Below, in pieces: positions 48,343 to 64,000 of a stretch of DNA of 64,000 nucleotides (positions are counted from its first letter, which is position 1; every line of letters starts with the position of its first letter). This DNA comes from Minicystis rosea (GTDB taxonomy: Bacteria; Myxococcota_A; Polyangia; Polyangiales; Polyangiaceae). The position numbers and the translations under genes are program-made. Location of the stretch: contig CP016211.1 in the NCBI GenBank assembly GCA_001931535.1, positions 4,311,573 to 4,375,572 on the forward strand, written 5' to 3'. Under the pieces are notes generated by a model. It was not told the DNA's origin. It ran no database searches and was given only the letters and a program-made list of their open reading frames with translations.

Positions 48343-48780
48343 GGAGCCAGACTAATGCGAGGAGCAGGCGCCCCGCACGGTGAGAAGAGGCAACCGAGGG
48401 CGCGACGACGTGACGATGCGGAAAGGCAGGCCGCGTAGGCATCCCGCCGCGGTGCTTGGAGTCACCTCGCCGCACTGCGCGCTCCCGCTCGTGGACGCAC
48501 GCGGGCAAGCGACCGCCGGCCCGCGCGCCAGCCTCTCGTCAAAAGGAGCACTGCGTCTGCATCGCCGAGCCTTCGTTTCACCCTCGACGGCTCTCCGGAA
48601 AGGCGTCCGGGCTCCGCGCATCGCGCCCCGAGCGCTCGCCATGTCTGGGCTCCGGCCGGCAGCGCCACCGACGGAGCCGTGACGCCGGCCGCGCCGTGCG
48701 CCGCTCGCGCCGAGGCATCACCCGTGCGCAGCGGCAAACAACGCGCCCTCCCAGAGCAGCCCACCCCGACCTGTGCTCCC

Positions 48781-49181
48781 CGAGCCACTTCCCTCGTCGT
48801 AAATCCCCGATCCTGCGCGCCCGCCACCACTTCCACCGTCGTAAGCGCCCAATCCCCTGCTCCCGCGACCACTTCCACCGTCGTAAGCGCCCAATCCCCT
48901 GCTCCCGCGACCACTTCCACCGTCGTAAACGCCCAATCCCCCGCTCCTCGGGCCGCTGCCCTCGTTGGAAGTCCGCGCGCCTCGACTCCTGCAGCGACTT
49001 CCAACGTCGCAAGTGCCGATTCGCGTGCTCGCCCAAACCCTTCCATCGTTGAACGTGCCGATCCCTCAGCGCTCTCGCCGACTTTCACCGTTGTAGGCGC
49101 CGACACCCGCGCTCCTCCGAGCACTTCCATCGTTGGAAGCGCTCGCGCCTCGACACATCGACCAACGCACCTCGTCCGACG
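48781..49181. repeat. about 9.5 tandem copies of a degenerate 42-bp unit (consensus cgcccaatcccctgctcccgcgaccacttccaccgtcgtaag), a minisatellite
   Basis: Unit boundaries at 48804, 48846, 48888, 48930, 48972, 49014, 49056, 49098, 49140. Units diverge progressively and there are no unique spacers. Open in 5 of 6 frames because 42 = 14 codons. Confidence 0.75.
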
Positions 49182-49577: not shown

Positions 49578-49581
49578 GTAA
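49420..49581 (+). pseudogene. ureD: truncated duplicate of the ureD 5' end (53 codons), terminated at the duplication junction
   Basis: [52 protein letters not shown], then M and a stop. Identical to the N-terminus of the intact ureD in copy 2. Confidence 0.5.
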
Positions 49582-50314
49582 GCGCCCAATCCCCTGCTCC
49601 CGCGACCACTTCCACCGTCGTAAGCGCCCAATCCCCTGCTCCCGCGACCACTTCCACCGTCGTAAACGCCCAATCCCCCGCTCCTCGGGCCGCTGCCCTC
49701 GTTGGAAGTCCGCGCGCCTCGACTCCTGCAGCGACTTCCAACGTCGCAAGTGCCGATTCGCGTGCTCGCCCAAACCCTTCCATCGTTGAACGTGCCGATC
49801 CCTCAGCGCTCTCGCCGACTTTCACCGTTGTAGGCGCCGACACCCGCGCTCCTCCGAGCACTTCCATCGTTGGAAGCGCTCGCGCCTCGACACATCGACC
49901 AACGCACCTCGTCCGACGCGCCCGATCTCTCGCGAAGGCAGCGCCGAGCACCGGCGCAGGTCGCCGGCGGCGTGCCCTGCATGCAACCTCCCACCATGGG
50001 AACATCGCCCGAGCGGCATCCGCACGCGATGCGCTGCGCGGTCGTGGGCCGGCTCGCGCGCGCGGTGCGGGTTCCATCGCCGCGCGCCGTGTGATCCGCT
50101 ACGACCGCGGGAGCACCGGCCTCGGACTTCGTCGCCGGGGCCCGCATCGTCGCTCCATGCTTCACGTACCTGCCCTGCTCCCTGCCCTTGCGCCCGGTCA
50201 CGGCGTGCTCGCCTTCGCACGGCGCGAGGAGCGCACCGTTCTCGTCGGTGTGCGCGCCGCGAGCCCGCTCAAGATCCTCACGCCCAAGAACCACGGTCAC
50301 GGCGCGTGGGCGAT
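49578..50314. repeat. copy 2 of the 737-bp tandem duplication (includes a second partial 42-bp array at 49578..49918 and the intact ureD start)
   Basis: See copy 1. Confidence 0.75.
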
Positions 50315-53521: not shown

Positions 53522-54265
53522 GTGAGCGCGTGGCTCCTGCTCCAGCTCGCCGACTCGGCGTTCCCGGCCGGCGGCTTCGCGCACTCCGCGGGCCTCGAAG
53601 CCGCCGCCCAGCTCGGTGAGGTGAGCGGCGCCGCCGGGCTGCGTCGCTTCTGCGAAGAGTCCCTCTGGCAGGCGGGCCTCGGCGCGCTCCCCTTCGTGCG
53701 CGCGGCCCACGCCGCCGCCGTCGAGCCCCCGCGGGCCGACGGCGACACGCCGCTCGCTCCAACACCGCCGCGACCGTCGGAGAGCGGGCCTCTCCGCGCG
53801 GCACGCGTCGCCGGCATCGACGTCCACTGCCACGCCTTCCTCGCGAACCACGTCGCCAACCGCGCGAGCCGCACGCAGGGTCGCGCCTTCGCGGCGACGG
53901 TGGCGCGCGTGTTCCCGCGGCCCGAGGTCACCTGGATCGAAGAGGCGGTCCGCGCCCGCACGCTGCACGGACACCACGCGCCCGTTTACGGCGCGGCGCT
54001 CGCGTCGCTCGGCGTGAGCGCCTCGGAAGCGCAGCGCCTCTTCCTCCACCAGGGTCTGCGCGGCGTCACCTCGGCGGCGGTGCGGCTCGGGCTCCTCGGC
54101 CCGCACGAAGCGCAGCGCATGCAGCACGATCTCGGCTCCCTCGCGGACGACGTGCTTTCGCGCTGCGCGCACCTCTCCTTGGATGAAGCGGCGCAGCCGG
54201 CACCGCTCCTCGATCTGTTCGGCGCCATGCACGACCGGCTCTACGCACGTCTCTTCCAGAGTTGA
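53522..54265 (+). CDS. ureF: urease accessory protein UreF
   Basis: GTG 2 nt after the ureC stop. [21 protein letters not shown] signature. Confidence 0.85.
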
Positions 54266-54300
54266 GATCCAGGCTGTCTCGATCACGCTCCGAGGTCCCC

Positions 54301-55092
54301 ATGCCCCCGCACGATCCTCCCCACGGCCACCCGCACGATCACGACCACGCGCACGCTCACGATCACCCGCACGACCATCACGACCACGATCACCCGCACG
54401 ACCACGAGCACGAGCACTGGACGCACCCGGGCCTGTTCCGCGAGCGCGACCGCCCGCTCGCGCGGGACTACGCGGCGCGCTCGTTCACCATCGGGATCGG
54501 CGGGCCCGTAGGCAGCGGGAAGACGGCGCTCGTCCTCGCGCTCTGCCGCGCGCTCCGCGACACGTATCGCCTGGGCGTCGTGACCAACGACATCTTCACG
54601 CGCGAAGACGCCGAGTTCCTCCACCGGAACCAGGCCCTGCCGGCGCCGCACATCCGCGCGGTGGAGACAGGCGGCTGCCCGCACGCGGCCATCCGCGAGG
54701 ACATCAGCCACAACCTGCTCGCGCTCGAGCAGCTCATGGAGGAGGTGAAGCCCGAGCTGTTGTTCGTGGAGAGCGGCGGCGACAACCTGGCGGCGCAGTA
54801 CAGCCGCGAGCTCGTCGACTACACCATCTACGTCATCGACGTGGCCGGCGGCGACAAGGTCCCGCGCAAGGGCGGGCCGGGGATCACGCAGAGCGACCTG
54901 CTCGTGATCAACAAGATCGATCTCGCGCCCCACGTCGGCGCCGATCTCGGCGTCATGGATCGCGACGCCCGCCGCATGCGCGGCGACGGCCCCACCGTGT
55001 TCGCCCAGGTGAACGGCGGCAAGGGCGTGCCCGAGATCGCGGAGCATGTGCTCGCCGCCTGGCGCGAAGCGCTGGCCGAGCGCAGCACCTGA
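54301..55092 (+). CDS. ureG: urease accessory GTPase UreG with a His-rich N-terminal extension
   Basis: [36 protein letters not shown] tract, then a P-loop ([13 protein letters not shown]), ESGGDNL, and NKIDL motifs. Confidence 0.9.
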
Positions 55093-55254
55093 TCTCCTCG
55101 GCCGCTCTTCACGTCCGCGGCGGCATAGGGACTTCGACGAGCCGGCCGCGAGAGCGGCGGCGGGAGCGCTCTCCGCTCCTTGCCTCCCGCGGCACCGAAG
55201 CCCGTTCTCCATCGGCGCGCACCACACGCGAACGCACCTGATACCCTCGCGGCG

Positions 55255-56310
55255 ATGCCGCGCATCCTCGTCGCCTACGACATCCGAGCCGCTGCCGTCG
55301 TGGCCCGCCACGATCCCGCGCATCCCATGGTCTCGAGGCTCGCGGAGCTCGAGGCGCTCTCGACCGATGCCCACGACGTCGTGCGCGCGCTCTCCGCGCT
55401 CGGTCACGAGGCCGCGCTGCTCCCCATCGGTCGCGACGGAGAGGCGTTCGCGCGCATCGATCGCGAGCGTCCCGATCTCGTGCTCGATCTCTGCGACACG
55501 CTCGGAGGGCGCGGGGAGCTCGCCTGCGCGCTGCCTGCCTTCTGCGATTTCCTGGGCGTGCCCGTCGCCGGTGCGACCGGCGCCGGCAAGGCGCTCGGGC
55601 GGCGCAAGCACGACGTGAAGGCTGCGCTTTGTCGCGCGGGCGTGCCCACGCCGCGCTACCAAGTCATCGACGCGGAGGCGCGGCTCGAGAGCTTCACGCT
55701 CGATCTCGAGCCGCCGGTGATCGTGAAGCCCACCGGCGAGCACGCGTCGGTGGGCATCGGCCCCGCCTCGGTCGCCTGGGATCGAGACGCCGCCACCGCT
55801 CGCGCCCGGTGGTTGTTCGAGCACGGCATGGGCCCGGTGCTGGTCGAAGAGTACGTCGAAGGCGTCGAGCGCGAGCTCCTCCTCGCCGGCGATCCACCGC
55901 GCGTCTTCACGCCCATCGACGCCCCGCTCGCCGTCGTCCCCGCGGGCTACCCGCGCATCCGCACCTTCGACATCAAGTGGTTCAGCGATCCCGCCTTCAG
56001 CGGCGAGCTCCCACCGAAGGACCCGCGCTTTCTCGGTCCCCTCCCCGTCCGCGCGCCCGCCGTGCCCGCGCTCGCCGACGATCTCCCCACCATCGCGCGG
56101 GCCGCGTTCCACGCCGCGGGCTGCCGCGATTGGGGTCGCATCGACTTCCGTGTCGACGCGGGCGGCATTCCGCTCGTCATCGACGTCACCCCGAACGCGT
56201 ACCTCTCGACGACCTCGTCCGCGGCGGACTCCGCCGCCGAGGCCGGGGTCGGCTACGCCGAGCTGCTCACGATCATCCTGGAGGGCGCGCTCGCGCGCCG
56301 GAGCGCATGA
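55255..56310 (+). CDS. ATP-grasp enzyme of the D-alanine-D-alanine ligase family
   Basis: MPRILVAYD N-domain, ATP-grasp core (VIVKPTGEHASVGI, LVEEYVEGVERELL). Start at the ATG at 55255; stop overlaps the next gene (ATGA). Confidence 0.7.
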   Translation: MPRILVAYDIRAAAVVARHDPAHPMVSRLAELEALSTDAHDVVRALSALGHEAALLPIGRDGEAFARIDRERPDLVLDLCDTLGGRGELACALPAFCDFLGVPVAGATGAGKALGRRKHDVKAALCRAGVPTPRYQVIDAEARLESFTLDLEPPVIVKPTGEHASVGIGPASVAWDRDAATARARWLFEHGMGPVLVEEYVEGVERELLLAGDPPRVFTPIDAPLAVVPAGYPRIRTFDIKWFSDPAFSGELPPKDPRFLGPLPVRAPAVPALADDLPTIARAAFHAAGCRDWGRIDFRVDAGGIPLVIDVTPNAYLSTTSSAADSAAEAGVGYAELLTIILEGALARRSA

Positions 56311-57557
56311 CCGACATCTTCGATCGCCTCATCGAGCGCGTCCTCGAGCCCAAGAACCGCGAGGTCCGCGACCTCGTCGCGCGCGGCGGTCTCTACGACA
56401 ACGTCACGACCGGCATCCGCGGAAGGAAGGTCGAAATCGGCGGCCGCTGGTTCCTCGATTTCGCCTCGTGCAACTACTTGGGCCTCGACCTCGATCCGCG
56501 CATCATCGCCGCCGTCGAGCCCGAGCTCCGCCGCTGGGGCACGCACCCGAGCTGGGCGCGCCTCTGTTGCAGCCCCGATCTCTACGAAGCGCTGGAGCGC
56601 CGCCTCGCCGATCTCGTCGGCACCGAGGACGCGCTCGTGCTGCCCACCATCAGCCTCATCGCGGTGGGCCTCATCCCCGCGGTCACGTGCAAGGGTGCTC
56701 TCATCGCGGCCGACAAGTTCGTGCACAAGGTCAACCACGACGGCTGCCGCCTCGCCCGCGACATGAACGGCGCCGTGCTCGCGAGCTTCCGCCACGACGA
56801 TCCCGCGAGCCTCGACGCCCTCCTCGATGCCCATCGCGATGCCCCGATGCGCCTCGTGGTGATCGACGGCGTCCTCTCCGTCACGGGCCGCGTGCCCAAC
56901 CTCCGCGCCATCGTCGACGTCTGTCGCAAGCACGACGCGCTCGTCTACATCGACGACGCCCACGGGTTCGGCGTGCTCGGCGAAGGGCCGACGCCGGAGC
57001 GCCCCTTCGGCCGCCGCGGCAACGGCGTCATCCGTCACCTCGATCTCGGCTACGACAACGTGCTCTACGTGTCCGGCCTCTCCAAGGCGTACTCGTCGCT
57101 CGCCGCCTTCATCGCCTGCCCGCGCAAGCTGAAGACGTTCCTCAAGTGCACGGTCACGTCGTACGCCGTCTCCGGCCCCGTGCCGACCGCGGCGCTCGCC
57201 ACCGCGCTCGCCGGCCTCGCGCTCAACGACGTCGAAGGCGACACGTGGCGCGACACGCTGCACGCGTACACGACCGCGATCCTCGAAGGCTACCGCGCGC
57301 TCGGGATCCCGACCGACAACGACAACGGCTTCCCGATCGTCTCGGCGTACGTGGGATCGGCGGAGCGCGTGCGGCGCGGCGGCGAGCTGCTCTGCGAGGC
57401 CGGCATCAACGTGACGCTCCAGGGCTATCCGCTCGTGCCGCGCGACAAGGGCGTGCTCCGCGCCACGCCCACCGCGGCCAACACCTGGGACGAGGTCCAC
57501 ACGCTCATCCGCGTGATGGGCGACGTCCACGCGCGCCTCGCTGCCGAGGGCGTGTGA
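56307..57557 (+). CDS. alpha-oxoamine synthase family PLP enzyme (BioF / serine palmitoyltransferase / CqsA-like)
   Basis: Fold-type I PLP enzyme with DDAHGFGVLG and the SGLSKAYSS Lys motif characteristic of the 8-amino-7-oxononanoate synthase/SPT family. 416 aa. Confidence 0.85.
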   Translation: MTDIFDRLIERVLEPKNREVRDLVARGGLYDNVTTGIRGRKVEIGGRWFLDFASCNYLGLDLDPRIIAAVEPELRRWGTHPSWARLCCSPDLYEALERRLADLVGTEDALVLPTISLIAVGLIPAVTCKGALIAADKFVHKVNHDGCRLARDMNGAVLASFRHDDPASLDALLDAHRDAPMRLVVIDGVLSVTGRVPNLRAIVDVCRKHDALVYIDDAHGFGVLGEGPTPERPFGRRGNGVIRHLDLGYDNVLYVSGLSKAYSSLAAFIACPRKLKTFLKCTVTSYAVSGPVPTAALATALAGLALNDVEGDTWRDTLHAYTTAILEGYRALGIPTDNDNGFPIVSAYVGSAERVRRGGELLCEAGINVTLQGYPLVPRDKGVLRATPTAANTWDEVHTLIRVMGDVHARLAAEGV

Positions 57558-59218
57558 GCGTCACGCCGCTCGCCGAGCGCTTCGCGATCGTCGGTGCCTC
57601 GTGCTTCGCCGCCGTGGAGGGCGATCGCGATGCGGTGCCGCCCTTCTCGCGCGAGCGCTTTCGCGCGTTGGGTGCGACCGGGCTCTTCCGGCTCGCGATC
57701 GAAGGCCACGGCCTCGCGGGCGCCACCCTCGCGCTCGCCGGCTTCGCCGAGGGCAGCTTCGATCTCGGGCTCGCCACCAGCGCGCTCGCGCAGATGGTCG
57801 CCGTGGTCATCCTCGCGCGCCATGCGTCCGGCCCCGTCGCCGATCGCTGGCTCGCGCGCCTCGCATCCGGCGAGGCCATCGCGACCATCGCCAACGCCGA
57901 GCCGGGCGCCGGCACCAACATCCTCGGCCTGCGCGCCCGCGCCCGCGCGGTACCGGACGGAGGCTTCCTCCTCTCCGCCCGCAAACGCTGCATCACCAAC
58001 GCGCCCGCCGCCGACGTCGCCATCGTCTCGGCGCGCGTAGCCGGTGCCGATCCGCGCCGCGCCATCACCTGCTTCGCCGTCGAGCTGCCCGCGCCGCGCG
58101 TCTACAGCCGGCCGCGTCTCGATCTCGCCGGCCTCACCAGCTCGCCCACGGGCGATCTCCTGCTCTTCCGCGCCGAGGTGCCGCACGCCGCCGCCGTCGG
58201 CGACATCGGCAGCGGCGTCGCTTTGTTCAGAGAGGTCTTCGCCTTGGAGCGGCTCTTTGCCGGCGCGCTCTTCCTGGCCACGCTGCGTCGCTGCCAGCGC
58301 CGCGCGCTCGACATCGCCGAAGCGCGCGACGCCTTCCGCGATCCCATCGGCGTCCACCAGCACGTGCAAGAGCGCGTGCTCCAGATGCGCGTCGCCGCCG
58401 ATCTCCTCGACGGTCATCTTCGTGAGACCGCGCGCCGCATGGACGCCGGAGAGGACGTCGGCCCCGCGCTCGCGGCCATCAAGATCCACGGCCTCGACGC
58501 CGCCCACGACGCGCTCACCGGCCTCCGCCGCCTGCTCGGGGCGCGCGGCCTCTCACGCGCCGACTGGACTGCGCGCGTCTCCGAGGACCTCGCCGTGCTC
58601 GCGGTCTTCGGCGGCACCGTCGAGCTCCACAAGCGCGCGCTCTACGCCGATCTCGTGCGCGAGCGCGAGGCCCGCGTCGACATCACGATCGCGGCTCCTC
58701 CGCCCGCGGGCAGCGCGCTCGAGCGCGATCTCGTCGCCCTCGTCGCGCGCGCCATGCCCGCCTTCGATCACCTGCACGGGCGCTACACGTACGACGCGCC
58801 CGCGACGCATCTCGCGCTGGCCCATGCGGGCGCGAAGCTCGCCGGCTTCCGCGCGATGTTCTCCCGCGAGGTTCGTGTCGGCGACGCGCGCGTGCGTGCG
58901 CTCGGGATGGGCATCGCCGTGGACCCCGCGTTTCAGCGGCGCGGGCTCGGGCGTCGCCTCACCGCCGCCGCGCTCGCCTGGGCCCGCGCGAGCGGGCACC
59001 GCCTCGGCATCGCCTTCCTCGCCACCACGAATGCCGAGCCCCTCCTGCGCGAGAACGGCTTCCGCCCGCTTCGGGCCCGCGTCACGTACCACGACGCCCA
59101 AGGCAACCGCCGCGAGGAAGAAGAAGCGCCCTGCTGGGTCGCCGCGCTCGACGGGAGCGCGGTGGTCTTGGAGATCGAAGCCCACGGCGAGCTCGATCTC
59201 GGCGACCGCACGTTCTGA
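57554..59218 (+). CDS. fusion of an acyl-CoA dehydrogenase-like domain and a C-terminal GNAT acetyltransferase domain
   Basis: GTG overlapping the previous stop (GTGA). N-terminal roughly 380 aa shows the ACAD-like fold pattern (ANAEPGAGTNILGL..., C-terminal helical bundle). The C-terminus has the GNAT motif (VDPAFQRRGLGRRLTAAAL). Confidence 0.65.
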   Translation: MSVTPLAERFAIVGASCFAAVEGDRDAVPPFSRERFRALGATGLFRLAIEGHGLAGATLALAGFAEGSFDLGLATSALAQMVAVVILARHASGPVADRWLARLASGEAIATIANAEPGAGTNILGLRARARAVPDGGFLLSARKRCITNAPAADVAIVSARVAGADPRRAITCFAVELPAPRVYSRPRLDLAGLTSSPTGDLLLFRAEVPHAAAVGDIGSGVALFREVFALERLFAGALFLATLRRCQRRALDIAEARDAFRDPIGVHQHVQERVLQMRVAADLLDGHLRETARRMDAGEDVGPALAAIKIHGLDAAHDALTGLRRLLGARGLSRADWTARVSEDLAVLAVFGGTVELHKRALYADLVREREARVDITIAAPPPAGSALERDLVALVARAMPAFDHLHGRYTYDAPATHLALAHAGAKLAGFRAMFSREVRVGDARVRALGMGIAVDPAFQRRGLGRRLTAAALAWARASGHRLGIAFLATTNAEPLLRENGFRPLRARVTYHDAQGNRREEEEAPCWVAALDGSAVVLEIEAHGELDLGDRTF

Positions 59219-59248
59219 TCTGGAAAACCTGCGCCGCGCGGGCCTTCG

Positions 59249-60202
59249 TCACCCCTCCGCGGGCTTCATCACGAGGCCCCAGCCCACCGTCGACGGGCGG
59301 CCGGCGCGCTCGAACTTCACCAGGAAGATGCCGCGATCGTCGGCGCTCTGCACCGTCGCGCGCCGCATCTTCCCGCCCGACTCGGCCCAGATGATCGCGC
59401 CGACCTTGAGCTCGAGCCTCACGGGGATGGGCGCGAGCTCGCTCTCGTTCACCACCATCGCCGCACCGCCGAAGCCGAGCGCGAGCCACTTGCGCCCCTC
59501 GCCGTCGCCGAAGCCGGAGATGAGCTGCACGTGCAGCCAATCCTCCCCTTGGTGGAGCGCGGCGTAGTTGCCGGGTTGAAGGCCTTCGGTCTGCTTCACG
59601 AAGCGCGCGGCCTTCGAAGGGCCCGTCGCGGTAGGCTTGCCGGAGCCGCCGAGGAGCAGCACCTCCTGCGAGCGGCCTTCGAGGTCGGTGTAGCGCACGC
59701 CCACGCGATCGCGGATGAACTTGGTGACCACCGCGTGTCGCATCACACCGCCCTGCTCGGTGAGCACCGGATCGCCGGGCTTGAGGCGCGGATCGTCGGG
59801 CACCGCGATGACGTAGCCCGGATGGATGCGGTACGACGGGCTGCCGCGGGACTCGACGACGAGATCATCGCCATCCATCCCGGTCACGGTGCCGGCCTGG
59901 AGGATGAAGGTCGAGCCCGGCTTCGCGCCCTTGAGCATCGCCTCGGGGATGGTGAAGATGCGCCGGTTGGGCTGGAGGTTGTTGCGCATCGGCGGAAGGC
60001 CGAGCGGATTGTGCTGCGAGGACGAGCCCGCCTCGGGCCGCACGCGCGCCGCGGGCGCAGCAGACGGAGGCGACGCATCCGCCGAAGGCGACGACGAAGT
60101 CGTGGAAGCCGAGGCGGACGTCCCCGAGGGCGCGCCGCGGTTGCCGCAGGCGCAGACGGCCGCGAGCGCGAGCGGGAGGAACGCGGGGCGAAGGGCGCGC
60201 AT
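59249..60202 (-). CDS. lipoprotein of unknown function (317 aa)
   Basis: Signal and lipobox (LALAAVCACG), then an S/T/A/P-rich linker and a globular domain. Start at the ATG at 60202. Confidence 0.6.
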   Translation of the reverse strand: MRALRPAFLPLALAAVCACGNRGAPSGTSASASTTSSSPSADASPPSAAPAARVRPEAGSSSQHNPLGLPPMRNNLQPNRRIFTIPEAMLKGAKPGSTFILQAGTVTGMDGDDLVVESRGSPSYRIHPGYVIAVPDDPRLKPGDPVLTEQGGVMRHAVVTKFIRDRVGVRYTDLEGRSQEVLLLGGSGKPTATGPSKAARFVKQTEGLQPGNYAALHQGEDWLHVQLISGFGDGEGRKWLALGFGGAAMVVNESELAPIPVRLELKVGAIIWAESGGKMRRATVQSADDRGIFLVKFERAGRPSTVGWGLVMKPAEG

Positions 60203-60245
60203 CGGGCCTACTCTCGCGCGCGCGAGGCCGTAGTACAAGGCGGCG

Positions 60246-60707
60246 ATGAGCGACGACCGGACCTTCACCACCGCCGACCTGAAGAAGGCGACCTCCGTAC
60301 GCTTCGCCGAGACCCGCCTCGTGCGCTTCCAGGACGTGGATGCAGCGGGGATCATCTTCTACCCGCGCGTGCTCGAATACATGAGCGACGTGTACATCGC
60401 GATGGTCATGCAATCCGGCTGGGACCTGCCGAAGGAGCTCGGGCAGAGCTCGGTCGGCACGCCGCTCGTGCACGCCGAGGCGGACTACCTTTCGCCGCTC
60501 CGCTTCGGCGACGACGTGCACGTGGAGATCGTGGGCGTGCGCCTGGGCGCGACGTCGTTCACCGTCGGCTACCGCGTGCGCACGAAGGGCGGCGTGGTCG
60601 CCGCCGTGGGCCAGACGGTGCACGTCTGCTTGGATCGGGCGACGTTCAAGCCGCAGCCCATCCCCGACTCGCTGCGCGAAATCCTCACGGGCGGCGCGCC
60701 GGGTTGA
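60246..60707 (+). CDS. 4HBT/YbgC-family hot-dog acyl-CoA thioesterase (possibly DHNA-CoA thioesterase given the men context)
   Basis: 153 aa. RFQDVDAAGIIFYPRVLEYM and the hot-dog fold pattern. Converges on and overlaps the menE 3' end. Confidence 0.8.
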   Translation: MSDDRTFTTADLKKATSVRFAETRLVRFQDVDAAGIIFYPRVLEYMSDVYIAMVMQSGWDLPKELGQSSVGTPLVHAEADYLSPLRFGDDVHVEIVGVRLGATSFTVGYRVRTKGGVVAAVGQTVHVCLDRATFKPQPIPDSLREILTGGAPG

Positions 60708-62139
60708 ACGGGCGGAGCAGCGCCGCGTAGCGATCGACGACGCGCGTGCGATCGAGCTTGCCCGATCCGGTGAGCGGGAGCGCCGCGACCACGCACGCGA
60801 GGCGCGGGCGCTTGTGCGGCGCGAGGCTCTGCGCCGCGGCCTCCGCGATGTCGTCGAGATCGACAGAGGGCTCCGTCTCCAACGCGGCGGCGACGATCTG
60901 CCCCCAGCGCTCGTCGGGCACGCCGAAGACGAGCGCGCGCCGCACGCCGGCGATGGCTTCGAGGCGCTGCTCGACCTCGACGGGATAGACGTTCTCGCCG
61001 CCCGTGACGATGAGATCGTTCCTGCGCGCATGCACGTGCAGTGCGCCGTCGTCGTCACGCTCGCCGAGATCCCCGGTGTCGAAGAACCCTTCCGCATCGA
61101 CGCGCGCCTCGGGCGCGCAGTCCGGGCCGCGGAAGTATCCATCCATGAGCGTCGGCCCGCGCACTTGGATGCGCCCGACCTCACCGCGCGGCGCTTCCGA
61201 TCCATCGGCGCGCGCGATGCGGATCTCGACGCCCGCGAGCGGCACGCCCGAGCCCGGCGCGGCGCGATGGGGAACCGCCGGCCGCTGCACGGTGACCTGT
61301 GAGCAAGCCTCGGTGAGCCCATACGTCGTGAGCGCAGGCACGCCGCGTCGCGCGCACGCTTCGAGGAGCGACGCCGGCGCCGCCGCACCACCGACGAGGA
61401 CCGCGCGGAGGCGTGCGAGCACGTTGCCATCATCACGCTCCAGCAAAGCCTGCAGCATGGTGGGGACGACGGAGAGCAACGTCGCCCGCTCGCGATCGAT
61501 GGCTGCGAGGATGGCCTCCGGATCGAAGCGCGGCACGAGGATCACCGCGCGCCGCGCGATGAGGCAGCGCGTGAGGATCGAGAGGCCGCCGACGTGACAG
61601 AGCGGCATGCAGCAGAGCCAGCGGTCCGCGTCGATCCATCCGAGGTTCACCGTACTGCCGGCCGCGCTCGCGAGGAACGCGCGCCGCGAAAGGACGGCGC
61701 CCTTGGGCCGGCCGGTCGTGCCGGAGGTGTAGACGATCGCGAGCGGCGCGTCGGCGCGCGGTGCCTCCGTGGTGGGCGAGGCGCTCGGGCTGCGTGTTGC
61801 CGCGAGCCTGCCGAGGTCAGCCTCGCACAGCACCAAAAGCGGCTTCGCATCGGCGAGGATCACCGCGGCCTCCGCCGCCGTGAGGCGCGGGTGGATGGGG
61901 ACGATGGTAGCGCCGAGATCGAGCAGCGCGTGGATGGCCACCACGGTGTCCACGCCGTTCGGCGCCAGCAACGCGACCCGTGATCCGAGAGACACGCCGG
62001 CCTCGCGCAGCGCCGCGCCCATCACGGAAGCCCGCTCCGCGAGCGCCGCGAACGAGAACGTCGCGCCGCCTACGATCAGCGCCGGTCTCCCCGCCACCTC
62101 CGGATCGGCGGCGGCCCGAGCGAGGCTCAGCTCATCCAT
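60685..62139 (-). CDS. menE: o-succinylbenzoate-CoA ligase-like AMP-dependent synthetase
   Basis: AMP-binding motif (IVYTSGTTGRPKGAV), TYGLTEA, and a GSGKLDR C-terminal Lys motif. Start at the ATG at 62139 (MDELSLA...). Confidence 0.8.
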   Translation of the reverse strand: MDELSLARAAADPEVAGRPALIVGGATFSFAALAERASVMGAALREAGVSLGSRVALLAPNGVDTVVAIHALLDLGATIVPIHPRLTAAEAAVILADAKPLLVLCEADLGRLAATRSPSASPTTEAPRADAPLAIVYTSGTTGRPKGAVLSRRAFLASAAGSTVNLGWIDADRWLCCMPLCHVGGLSILTRCLIARRAVILVPRFDPEAILAAIDRERATLLSVVPTMLQALLERDDGNVLARLRAVLVGGAAAPASLLEACARRGVPALTTYGLTEACSQVTVQRPAVPHRAAPGSGVPLAGVEIRIARADGSEAPRGEVGRIQVRGPTLMDGYFRGPDCAPEARVDAEGFFDTGDLGERDDDGALHVHARRNDLIVTGGENVYPVEVEQRLEAIAGVRRALVFGVPDERWGQIVAAALETEPSVDLDDIAEAAAQSLAPHKRPRLACVVAALPLTGSGKLDRTRVVDRYAALLRPFNPARRP

Positions 62140-63217
62140 GCCCTTCGCAGCTCCACGTCGAATGCACGCCGAGGCCCGGCCCGCCGCTCGATCGCACGGC
62201 GAAGCGCTCCGCGAGCTGTGGGATGGCAACGCCCCCGAAGCTCGCCGAGAACACCGCGAGGTCACCATGCGCCGCGAGGCCGCACGCGAGCGGCGCGCGC
62301 GGGAGCGAGAGCGCGAGCTCCGCCGCCGCGGCCAGCGCGAACGGCCCATCGAAGAAGTGCGTCACCACCACGTCGATGCCAGCCTCCTGCGCGCGCACCG
62401 CGAGCGCCCGCGCGCGCACGAGGCCGCCCAGCACCGCGGGCTTGATCACGAACGCCGCGCACCCGCGCGACGACGCGAGCCGATCCACCATCTGCGGGTC
62501 CACGAGCGACTCGTCGGCGGCCCACGGCACCGCGCACGCACCGAGCCGATGCAATGCATCCGCGGCCACCGGCTGCTCCACGAAGCTCGGCGCGATGGGG
62601 GCGAGCGCCAGGAGCCGGCGGCGCGCGTCCTCCTCGGGCCAGGCCGCGTTGGGATCGAGCCGGATTTCGTACGGCAGCGGAAGCCGCGCCCGCACCTCGA
62701 GAAGCGCGTCGAGCTCTCGCGCGAAGCCCTCCTCGTCCGCGGCCTTCAGCTTGATCTTGAGCGCCGAATATCCCTCGGCAGCGAGCGCCGCCGCGCGCTC
62801 GGCAAGCGTCTCCACGGGAGGCGCCACGAGCAGCGCGTTCACCGGCACGCGATCGTAGGCGCCCGTCCCCCCGAGGCACGCAGCCACCGACCTTCCGCTG
62901 CGCTGCCCGAGCAGATCGAAGAGCGCCGTCTCCAACGCGAACCGCGCCGACGGCACCGCTTCGAGCGCGCGCCCGAACGGCCGCAGCGCATGAGTCACCG
63001 CCTCGACGAGCACCGCGCTTTCATCGATCGCATCGATGCGCTCATGCGCCTGCGCGAGGACGCTCGCGCACGCATCCGCATCCTCGCGCGAGAACGGTGG
63101 CAAGGGCGCGGCCTCGCCATGACCGATGTGCCCATCGTCGTCGACGAGGTCGAGAAGAATGCTGGGTCTCGGCCGCGAACCGCGTTGGATGCGAGAGGCG
63201 ACGAGACGCATCGCCAT
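62132..63217 (-). CDS. menC: o-succinylbenzoate synthase (enolase superfamily)
   Basis: KIKLK motif and enolase-superfamily metal ligands (...IRLDPNAAW..., ...DESL...). 361 aa from the ATG at 63217; overlaps the menE start by 8 nt. Confidence 0.8.
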   Translation of the reverse strand: MAMRLVASRIQRGSRPRPSILLDLVDDDGHIGHGEAAPLPPFSREDADACASVLAQAHERIDAIDESAVLVEAVTHALRPFGRALEAVPSARFALETALFDLLGQRSGRSVAACLGGTGAYDRVPVNALLVAPPVETLAERAAALAAEGYSALKIKLKAADEEGFARELDALLEVRARLPLPYEIRLDPNAAWPEEDARRRLLALAPIAPSFVEQPVAADALHRLGACAVPWAADESLVDPQMVDRLASSRGCAAFVIKPAVLGGLVRARALAVRAQEAGIDVVVTHFFDGPFALAAAAELALSLPRAPLACGLAAHGDLAVFSASFGGVAIPQLAERFAVRSSGGPGLGVHSTWSCEGHG

Positions 63218-63222
63218 CACCG

Positions 63223-64000
63223 CTACCGCGCCACCAGGCCGAGCGAGAAGAGCACGCCGTAGAGCAGGAGCAGCTTCGCCGTCGACACCAGGCAGTCGTT
63301 GAGCGGCCGCCCTTCCGTCGAGGCCAGCGTTCGCACGAGCCGCGCCGCCCGCGGCACCGTCACGATGGGCAGGAGCACCCATCGTCGCTGCCCGAGCGCG
63401 AGCACCGCGACGATGGGCGCCGCGTACGCGATCACGAAGAGCGTCGCATACTCGATCACGCCCGCCTGCCGCCCGAAGCGCACCGCGAGCGTGCGCTTGC
63501 CTGCCTTCACGTCGGTCTCCCGATCGCGGACGTTGTTGACCACGAGCACCGCGGTCGCGATCGCGCCCACCGGCACCGACGCGAGCCACGCCAGCGGCGG
63601 CACCGTCCCCGTCTGCACGAACACCGTCCCGCACACGGCCACGAACCCGAAGAAGATCATCACGAAGAGATCCCCGAGCCCGTGATACCCGAGCGGATAC
63701 GGCCCGCCCGTGTACGCGACCGCCGAGAGCACCGACGCGATGCCGATGGCGACGATCGGCCACCCGCCCACGAACGCGAGGTACACGCCGCTGAGCACGG
63801 CGAGCGCGATCGTCACCATCAACCCGGCGCGCACCTGTTTCGCCGTGAGCAGCCCCGCCTGCACCGCGCGCGTCGGCCCGAGCCGCTCGCTCGTGTCGGC
63901 GCCCTTCTCGTGATCGAAGACGTCGTTGGCGAAGTTCGACGTGATCTGGAGCATGAACGCGCCGAACAACGCCGCGAGCGCCGGCCCGGGACGCACGCCG
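63223..64000 (-). CDS. menA: 1,4-dihydroxy-2-naphthoate prenyltransferase (UbiA family), C-terminal about 258 codons; N-terminus lies beyond the window end
   Basis: UbiA-family Asp-rich motif [11 protein letters not shown] and multiple TM helices. The ORF runs to the window edge. Confidence 0.8.

Follow-up and report, generated by a model that had tools for sequence, protein, structure and literature searches.

A conserved alpha-oxoamine synthase and acyl-CoA dehydrogenase-GNAT cassette in Minicystis rosea, an orphan mini-pathway with a candidate role in small-molecule synthesis

The three genes and their protein families

The 64,000-nucleotide stretch of Minicystis rosea DNA analysed here (contig CP016211.1, positions 4,311,573 to 4,375,572; hereafter the window, at its full length) has a GC content of ~72% and carries three overlapping genes, g1, g2 and g3. 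They encode an ATP-grasp ligase, a pyridoxal phosphate (PLP)-dependent alpha-oxoamine synthase (AOS), and a protein in which an acyl-CoA dehydrogenase (ACAD)-like domain is fused to a GNAT N-acyltransferase domain. The cassette is a conserved orphan mini-pathway and a variant of known AOS-based small-molecule routes. The three open reading frames (ORFs) and their ATGA and GTGA start-stop overlaps were found exactly where an initial annotation had placed them, the families named there were confirmed with Pfam and NCBIfam models, and the N-termini matched those of homologs in alignments. The features are listed below; L and P numbers denote related loci.

55255-56310, plus strand: g1, ATP-grasp ligase with a Ddl fold, 351 aa, a facultative cassette member
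56307-57557, plus strand: g2, PLP-dependent AOS, 416 aa, assigned to a distinct subfamily
57554-59218, plus strand: g3, ACAD-GNAT fusion, 554 aa
57554-58675, plus strand: N-terminal part of g3, ACAD-like flavoenzyme domain, ~residues 1-374
58676-59218, plus strand: C-terminal part of g3, GNAT N-acyltransferase domain, ~residues 375-554 and stop codon
56307-56310, plus strand: g1/g2 start-stop overlap ATGA, with comparable overlaps in L009 (4 nt) and L014 (8 nt)
57554-57557, plus strand: g2/g3 start-stop overlap GTGA, a 4-nt AOS/ACAD overlap seen again in other loci

The g2 protein was matched by Aminotran_1_2 in Pfam, and its best NCBIfam matches were bioF, Kbl and serine palmitoyltransferase (SPT) models. 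On all eleven curated NCBIfam AOS models it scored below the cut-off: 198.3 bits against 426.45 for the bioF model TIGR00858, 174 against 535 for a BioF/Kbl-related model, 161 against 640 (SPT-CFB), 141 against 500 and 115 against 670 for the SPT models, 151 against 460 for Kbl, 120 against 339 for ALA synthase (ALAS), and 91.1 against 428 for the CqsA-type model NF005526. The closest PDB match was the broad-specificity Thermus enzyme ThAOS (6.6e-40), with KBL and SPT as further close solved relatives, and CqsA structures were not among the PDB matches at E<1e-20. Residues H140, D216/D217, H219, K260 (the PLP lysine) and R385 of g2 align with the catalytic residues of ThAOS, KBL and SPT and are invariant in 22 subfamily members. 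They supply the PLP-binding Lys, stacking His, Asp/His pair of the DDAHG motif and C-terminal Arg for the substrate carboxylate that mark the AOS superfamily (PLP fold type I). The subfamily is marked by the motifs DFASCNYL and GTHPSWAR; in g2, GTHPSWAR replaces the usual GxGxxGSR loop, HKV replaces HAS, and a 10-residue insertion follows DDAHGFGVLGE.

At least 595 genomes carry the subfamily, as counted in a scan of species-representative genomes for which close AOS relatives had been aligned. In a neighbour-joining tree with three outside references (KBL, SPT and ThAOS), it was monophyletic. It was divided into an ACAD-linked clade (clade A), an actinobacterial clade (clade B), and a third clade from candidate phyla radiation (CPR) bacteria, Alphaproteobacteria, Bdellovibrionales and Obscuribacterales. 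Homologs of the window ACAD, GNAT and ATP-grasp proteins were not detected in the latter two clades by tblastn with the window proteins as queries.

Judged by these scores, g2 belongs to a separate AOS subfamily outside the BioF, KBL, SPT, ALAS and CqsA cut-offs. Two pathways that the initial annotation had set aside were also rejected here. For the biotin pathway, g2 reached 198 bits against 426 on the bioF model, and no bio genes were present in the annotated flanks (~49.5-64 kb), which hold urease and men genes. For a classic sphingolipid cluster, the SPT scores (115-161 bits against 500-670) place g2 outside SPT and the bacterial ceramide pathway (Spt, bCerS, CerR, AcpR, AasR), and neither an acyl carrier protein (ACP), an acyl-ACP synthetase (Aas) nor a reductase was found in any related locus examined. 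Likewise, g2 is not CqsA or LqsA, given its score below the cut-off and the lack of a sensor gene beside the cassette in the window.

For g3, Pfam gave Acyl-CoA_dh_N, Acyl-CoA_dh_M and Acyl-CoA_dh_1, followed by GNAT at residues 411-508. The ACAD part has the three-domain fold, the flavin-contact motifs and a conserved catalytic Glu, which is of the isovaleryl-CoA dehydrogenase/prolyl-carrier-protein dehydrogenase type and not of the MCAD type. Its best match, both by sequence model and by structure, was PigA (134 bits, against equivalog cut-offs of 500 and 650); with this score, and without an adenylation enzyme and a carrier protein as partners, it is not an L-prolyl-carrier-protein dehydrogenase (PigA/RedW/AnaB). 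The GNAT part has the GNAT fold and conserves the acyl-CoA pyrophosphate-binding motif Q/R-x-x-G-x-G/A. Its nearest structures were acetyltransferases of small-molecule amines (AAC(2')), and the domain alone gave only marginal matches to PDB sequences (E ~0.01 or weaker). The structure model of the fusion was of moderate confidence (pLDDT 76). When metagenomes were scanned with the fusion alignment, three of 44 loci were true relatives and the rest were generic ACADs. The loss of catalytic residues from both domains of the fusion, which the initial annotation had named as a reason to abandon its proposal, does not apply, because the ACAD Glu and the GNAT CoA motif are both conserved; in alignments, catalytic or cofactor residues were kept in all four domains encoded by g1-g3.

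The g1 protein was matched by Dala_Dala_lig_C/ATP-grasp in Pfam (4.8e-12), and its best NCBIfam Ddl model gave 84.6 bits against a cut-off of 243. In its AlphaFold model (pLDDT 89.7) the top Foldseek matches were all Ddl (TM ~0.68, ~20% identity). Residues K118, K122, K158, S165/G167, E198, E205, R295 and D310 are invariant in 16 family members, N314 is nearly so, and position 297 is D or E, so that the ATP-binding lysines, the Gly-rich loop and the acidic/Asn Mg2+ ligands of the ATP-grasp superfamily are all present. The Ddl N-terminal domain PF01820 was undetected (Pfam, E <= 0.01), and IDVTPN stands where Ddl has its E-x-N Mg2+ motif; for these two reasons g1, although it has a Ddl fold, is not a Ddl, and together with the score below the cut-off they led to its rejection as a D-alanine--D-alanine ligase (Ddl/Van). 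The motif GGxSxE, which we take to be typical of the Ddl N-terminus, was not seen in the alignment of the g1 family.

Conservation and genomic setting of the cassette

Related loci (88) were surveyed by tblastn with the window proteins, and genes in high-GC loci were called with a GC3-based caller. An ACAD ortholog (39-68% identical) was present near the AOS in every locus whose AOS was at least 56% identical to g2, and the two were adjacent in 16 of 16 clade-A survey loci as well as in L089 and L094. The clade-A loci were from four Archangium, Vitiosangium, three Myxococcota/"delta" metagenome-assembled genomes (MAGs), one Gemmataceae MAG and several soil contigs, and their AOS proteins were 65-88% identical. 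The ACAD usually starts 0-132 nt past the AOS, often with a 4-nt overlap, which was found in at least eight independent loci (L002/L003, the P0003 and P0004 contigs, L007/L008, L015, L016, L089 and L094). Most loci have the GNAT domain joined to the ACAD in one protein, and L015 has it as a separate gene beside the ATP-grasp gene.

About half of the related loci also had an ATP-grasp ortholog, and the order of the genes varied among them. Orthologs 38-46% identical to g1 stand beside the AOS in L009, L010, L011, L014, L015, L017 and L089. The ATP-grasp gene is directly 5' of the AOS and overlaps it in Minicystis, L009 and L014, lies 5' of it by 25 nt in L017 and by 0.8-0.9 kb in A. gephyra and Vitiosangium, and is divergent from it in L015 and convergent in L089. 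Among distant ATP-grasp relatives, that of L090 is followed by a stand-alone GNAT and that of P0193 is fused to one. All four domains have orthologs that lie together in Archangium, Vitiosangium and several Myxococcota MAGs. In L089 (4713-5981, a Myxococcota MAG), a membrane protein of the HTTM (gamma-carboxylase-like) family is encoded 5' of the ATP-grasp gene, an isolated hint of a lipophilic substrate.

Because adjacency, translational coupling and domain fusion or shuffling recur across two myxobacterial suborders, the four activities are tied together. The conserved core is the AOS with the ACAD(-GNAT), and the ATP-grasp ligase is facultative. The initial annotation had read the trio as a unit; the recurrent AOS/ACAD overlap and the co-localisation of all four domains bear this out, except that the ATP-grasp ligase did not hold up as a constant member. 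The same data bear on a chance grouping of housekeeping paralogues (BioF, Ddl and a FadE-type ACAD), to which we would give only the slightest chance. Public annotation agrees with it, in that the genes are named 8-amino-7-oxononanoate synthase, D-alanine--D-alanine ligase and short-chain acyl-CoA dehydrogenase. However, g1, g2 and g3 all score far below the curated cut-offs for those functions, g1 lacks a detectable PF01820, and the co-localisation, overlaps and fusions conserved across suborders exclude chance, so that this explanation is effectively refuted by the context data.

Directly 5' of the cassette are urease genes (ureD, fused ureA/B, ureC, ureF and ureG), the last of which ends at 55092 and is separated from g1 by a 162-nt gap (55093-55254). 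The 3' side holds a minus-strand lipoprotein-like ORF, a 4HBT thioesterase gene and men-like genes. Flanking genes vary by lineage: urease and men genes in Minicystis, FGE-sulfatase in L002, RsfS/NAPRTase in L094 and AlkZ-like genes elsewhere. The adjacency to the urease operon that the initial annotation had pointed out is real, but because no related locus has urease genes nearby it is specific to Minicystis, and a functional urease link was rejected. The cassette is self-contained, and its position beside the urease genes is incidental. No carrier protein, adenylating enzyme, ketoreductase, transporter/exporter or regulator was conserved near the cassette in the related myxobacterial loci. 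A promoter and terminator scan of 54800-59600 predicted no elements, a result that is uninformative at 72% GC in a myxobacterial genome.

Several other features were observed in the flanks. A 42-bp tandem repeat forms two arrays (48774-48947 and 49578-49684; 4.1 and 2.5 copies, 86-96% matches) that lie 5' of the long ureD ORF and at its start, and it yields repetitive 'SAQSPAPATTSTVV' peptides in mechanical ORF translation. UreG (54262-55092) has a His/Asp-rich N-terminal extension coded by an imperfect 6/18/24-bp repeat at 54306-54417, and no ureE gene was seen in the ureD-ureAB-ureC-ureF-ureG cluster, in which ureA and ureB are fused. The ORF at 59249-60355 on the minus strand, convergent to g3, encodes a lipoprotein-type signal (MRALRPAFLPLALAAVCACG...) and gave no Pfam match; a homolog was not noticed in the related loci examined, although no search aimed at it was made. 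A menaquinone-type gene group occupies 60246-63996. Its minus-strand genes encode a UbiA prenyltransferase (menA-like, running past the window end), an MR_MLE enzyme (menC-like) and an AMP-binding enzyme (menE-like), and the 4HBT thioesterase gene is on the plus strand. This menE-like enzyme is probably MenE and not a partner of the cassette.

Proposed pathway and competing explanations

Since neither a carrier protein, an adenylating enzyme, a reductase nor a transporter is conserved, the substrates are likely to be free CoA thioesters and amino acids. We regard the chances as evenly balanced that the cassette is a self-contained module, independent of nonribosomal peptide synthetases (NRPS) and polyketide synthases (PKS), that converts an amino acid and an acyl-CoA to an N-acylated alpha-aminoketone; such a product would probably be desaturated. 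The product classes suggested by the initial annotation (an aminoketone, an N-acyl compound, a lipid or a signal) remain plausible. The gene structure, the domain identities, the intact catalytic residues and the conserved co-localisation, fusion and coupling are direct findings; the substrates, the order of the steps, the product and the biological role, which may be that of a signal, a lipid or an inhibitor, are inferred.

Four steps are proposed. The AOS would form an alpha-aminoketone from an amino acid and an acyl-CoA through PLP-dependent Claisen chemistry, and the GNAT domain would then N-acylate the reactive, unstable free amine with an acyl-CoA donor. The fused ACAD would make an alpha,beta double bond, either in the acyl-CoA before condensation or transfer, as MbtN acts before MbtK, or at the Calpha-Cbeta bond of the amino-acid-derived part beside the carbonyl, which would give an alaremycin-like enamide. 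The latter option is likened to PigA and ColB1, the closest structural relatives of the ACAD, which act on aminoacyl thioesters. Where the ATP-grasp ligase is present, it may form one ATP-dependent amide bond alongside the GNAT (Ngg-like logic), linking the carboxylate of an amino acid or N-acyl amino acid to the amine. We propose this scheme as the simplest one that gives each conserved domain a role. The characterised alaremycin, ketomemicin and Ngg systems, compared below, are precedents in which comparably small enzyme sets do function, and the preference of the structures nearest to the GNAT domain for small-molecule amines also speaks for it. No description of this gene combination was found in the open-access literature searched.

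Several points weigh against this scheme. ACADs normally need a thioester, and action on a ketone would be unusual. No activity or product has been observed, and substrate specificity is unreadable from the sequences. An exporter or regulator, expected for a secreted metabolite, is not present beside the cassette. In L001 (Archangium minus) and L004 (Archangium sp. MAG) the ACAD-GNAT fusion persists with no AOS close by; it may therefore also have an AOS-independent role. In both loci the fusion is at the syntenic position, and the ATP-grasp and AOS genes of A. gephyra and Vitiosangium are not within 10 kb; these genes may sit elsewhere in the genome, or the fusion may work independently of the AOS. 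Furthermore, L006/L013 and L016 have an ACAD without a detectable GNAT, so that N-acylation is not universal.

The sister clades of the AOS direct attention to signalling. In essentially all of ~52 actinobacterial loci (L036-L088), the AOS lies 3-200 nt from a same-strand gene that encodes a ~1070-aa multi-pass membrane PAS-GGDEF-EAL protein, and most also carry an MFS transporter (e.g. L051:9944-15745 and L037:6416-11260). The hosts include Solirubrobacterales, Thermoleophilia, Acidimicrobiia, Gaiellaceae, Streptomyces and Micromonosporaceae. In a Saccharimonadales genome (L019:7050-13090), the AOS is in translational coupling with a 980-aa AMP-binding protein, and a MASE6-PAS histidine kinase comes next. 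Other third-clade loci (L018, L020-L022 and L035; e.g. L021:8380-11801) have an AMP-binding enzyme directly 5' of the AOS; this order is found in Obscuribacterales with a methyltransferase-like gene nearby, and a small GNAT follows the AOS in three Obscuribacterales loci (L020, L021 and L035). The presence of the AOS in reduced CPR genomes is unexpected. CdgF and its six-transmembrane paralogue, treated in PMC6205966, are candidate counterparts of the Streptomyces PAS-GGDEF-EAL protein.

This tight linkage to sensory proteins would suit a cassette in which the AOS makes an alpha-amino- or alpha-hydroxy-ketone as a diffusible signal, like CqsA and LqsA, and the ACAD-GNAT and ATP-grasp proteins tailor it. 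The layout of a synthase beside its sensor is shared by cqsA-cqsS and lqsA-lqsS. However, no sensor, regulator or exporter is conserved beside any of the myxobacterial cassettes, g2 falls outside the CqsA/LqsA family by score and PDB matches, and the sensor link of clade B is itself drawn from gene context; a signal as the product is unlikely in our estimate. Signalling would be a role of the product, and the N-acyl aminoketone chemistry proposed above does not conflict with it. A broader version, which we consider improbable, is that the AOS is a large unrecognised family of signal synthases in at least 595 species-level genomes and that the Minicystis cassette makes a new signal class or a signal mimic. 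The AOS would then work with PAS-GGDEF-EAL proteins and MFS transporters in Actinobacteria and with an acyl-adenylating enzyme and a histidine kinase in Saccharimonadia, and in Myxococcota the ACAD-GNAT, with or without the ATP-grasp ligase, would N-acylate and desaturate this shared aminoketone scaffold.

Lipid-related neighbours raise a sphingolipid-like or aminolipid product, in which the AOS would act as an SPT on long-chain acyl-CoA, the GNAT as a bacterial ceramide synthase on the 3-keto base, and the ACAD as the source of a 2-enoyl chain (delta-4-type unsaturation). SPT is among the closest solved relatives of g2, a membrane fatty-acid-hydroxylase-family gene directly follows the stand-alone ACAD in L016 (6945-7799, a Myxococcota MAG) as an isolated hint of a lipophilic substrate, and a neutral ceramidase gene lies between the AOS and the ACAD-GNAT in Archangium and Vitiosangium. 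In bacterial ceramide synthesis (the Caulobacter pathway) the keto intermediate is N-acylated before reduction, which also counts in favour. So does the fact that myxobacteria make sphingolipids (PMC9386255). Against it, myxobacterial SPTs belong to the CFB-type group, g2 is far below the SPT cut-offs, no ketoreductase, ACP or acyl-ACP synthetase is conserved, and the ATP-grasp ligase has no role in such a scheme. The ceramidase was downgraded as evidence, since tblastn found it in the Archangium/Vitiosangium lineage only, one close lineage with 80-86% identical copies, and the window has none; because the flanking genes there do not change when the ATP-grasp/AOS pair is missing, it looks like pre-existing flanking DNA. 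A product of this kind seems improbable as well.

The reverse direction of the AOS was also considered, in which it would cleave an alpha-amino-beta-keto compound with CoA, as KBL does, the ACAD would oxidise the acyl-CoA, and the GNAT would detoxify the amine. KBL is a close solved relative of g2, the ACAD is as similar to catabolic isovaleryl- and glutaryl-CoA dehydrogenases as it is to biosynthetic ones, and the neighbouring hydrolases in Archangium (ceramidase, carboxylesterase and ABHD18) look degradative. Against this, no upstream, Tdh-like dehydrogenase to generate the keto substrate is conserved, and an ATP-consuming ligase and an ACAD-GNAT fusion fit catabolism poorly. The high identity of the AOS across clade A and its remodelled active-site loop argue for a specific, dedicated reaction, and we consider a catabolic or detoxifying role highly improbable.

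If the biosynthetic scheme of an N-acyl aminoketone is correct, two or three genes would suffice to make such a compound, possibly bearing an enone or enamide, from primary metabolites. Reactive scaffolds of this type are known from protease inhibitors, porphobilinogen-synthase inhibitors and quorum-sensing signals. The module, now annotated as BioF, Ddl and FadE, escapes NRPS/PKS-centred genome mining, and its small size suits direct heterologous expression. For the orphan membrane cyclic di-GMP enzymes of Actinobacteria and the sensor kinases of CPR bacteria, the wider AOS subfamily would be a testable candidate source of ligands.

Comparison with known systems

The N-acetylglutaminylglutamine synthetase Ngg contains an ATP-grasp domain. 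In this system one protein couples N-acetylation and peptide-bond formation (PMC8070244), a parallel to the pairing of ATP-grasp and GNAT in the cassette and to the P0193 fusion. Membership of this pair in the Ngg family was not supported, as none of the NCBIfam matches listed for g1 and P0193 is named for Ngg; they are D-Ala-D-Ala/D-Lac/D-Ser ligase, cyanophycin synthetase and similar models.

Mycobactin lipidation pairs the acyl-ACP dehydrogenase MbtN with the GNAT-type N-acyltransferase MbtK, but is ACP-dependent (MbtL, MbtM) and has no AOS; MbtK presumably belongs to a GNAT subfamily other than that of the cassette. In the 4-methoxy-2,2'-bipyrrole-5-carbaldehyde (MBC) branch of prodigiosin and undecylprodigiosin synthesis, an ACAD (the PigA/RedW prolyl-carrier-protein dehydrogenase) and an AOS (the PigH/RedN domain) likewise work in one pathway, whereas the cassette has no adenylation enzyme, carrier protein or ketosynthase and its ACAD is far below the equivalog cut-offs. 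The cassette is like CqsA/CqsS and LqsA/LqsS in that an AOS is dedicated to making a small molecule derived from an aminoketone, and the sister AOS clades stand beside membrane sensors; g2 itself is outside that family (91 bits against 428), and the myxobacterial cassette has no adjacent sensor.

The ketomemicin cluster of Actinomycetota (ktmA-F) combines a C-acyltransferase of the AOS type with an ATP-grasp ligase and a dehydrogenase in an NRPS-independent pseudopeptide route, its six genes coding for aldolase, AOS, dehydratase, ATP-grasp ligase, amidinotransferase and dehydrogenase (PMC11943689). Compared by gene content, it differs in needing the aldolase, dehydratase and amidinotransferase and in having no GNAT. 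None of these three enzymes was found in the window flanks or the related loci, and the cassette is thus not a ktm-type cluster.

In alaremycin synthesis of Streptomyces sp. A012304, AlmA (an AOS) is followed by AlmB (an N-acetyltransferase) and then by AlmC, an oxidoreductase giving the enamide (PMC12006855). AlmA is an ALA-synthase homolog, unlike g2, which reached 120 bits against 339 on the ALAS model. The redox partner in the cassette is an ACAD fused to the GNAT, whereas AlmC is described only as an oxidoreductase, and alaremycin has no ATP-grasp enzyme and has an MFS exporter, AlmE, which the cassette lacks. What the two have in common is a minimal NRPS/PKS-independent set that joins an AOS, GNAT-type N-acylation and redox unsaturation beside the carbonyl (PMC12006855).

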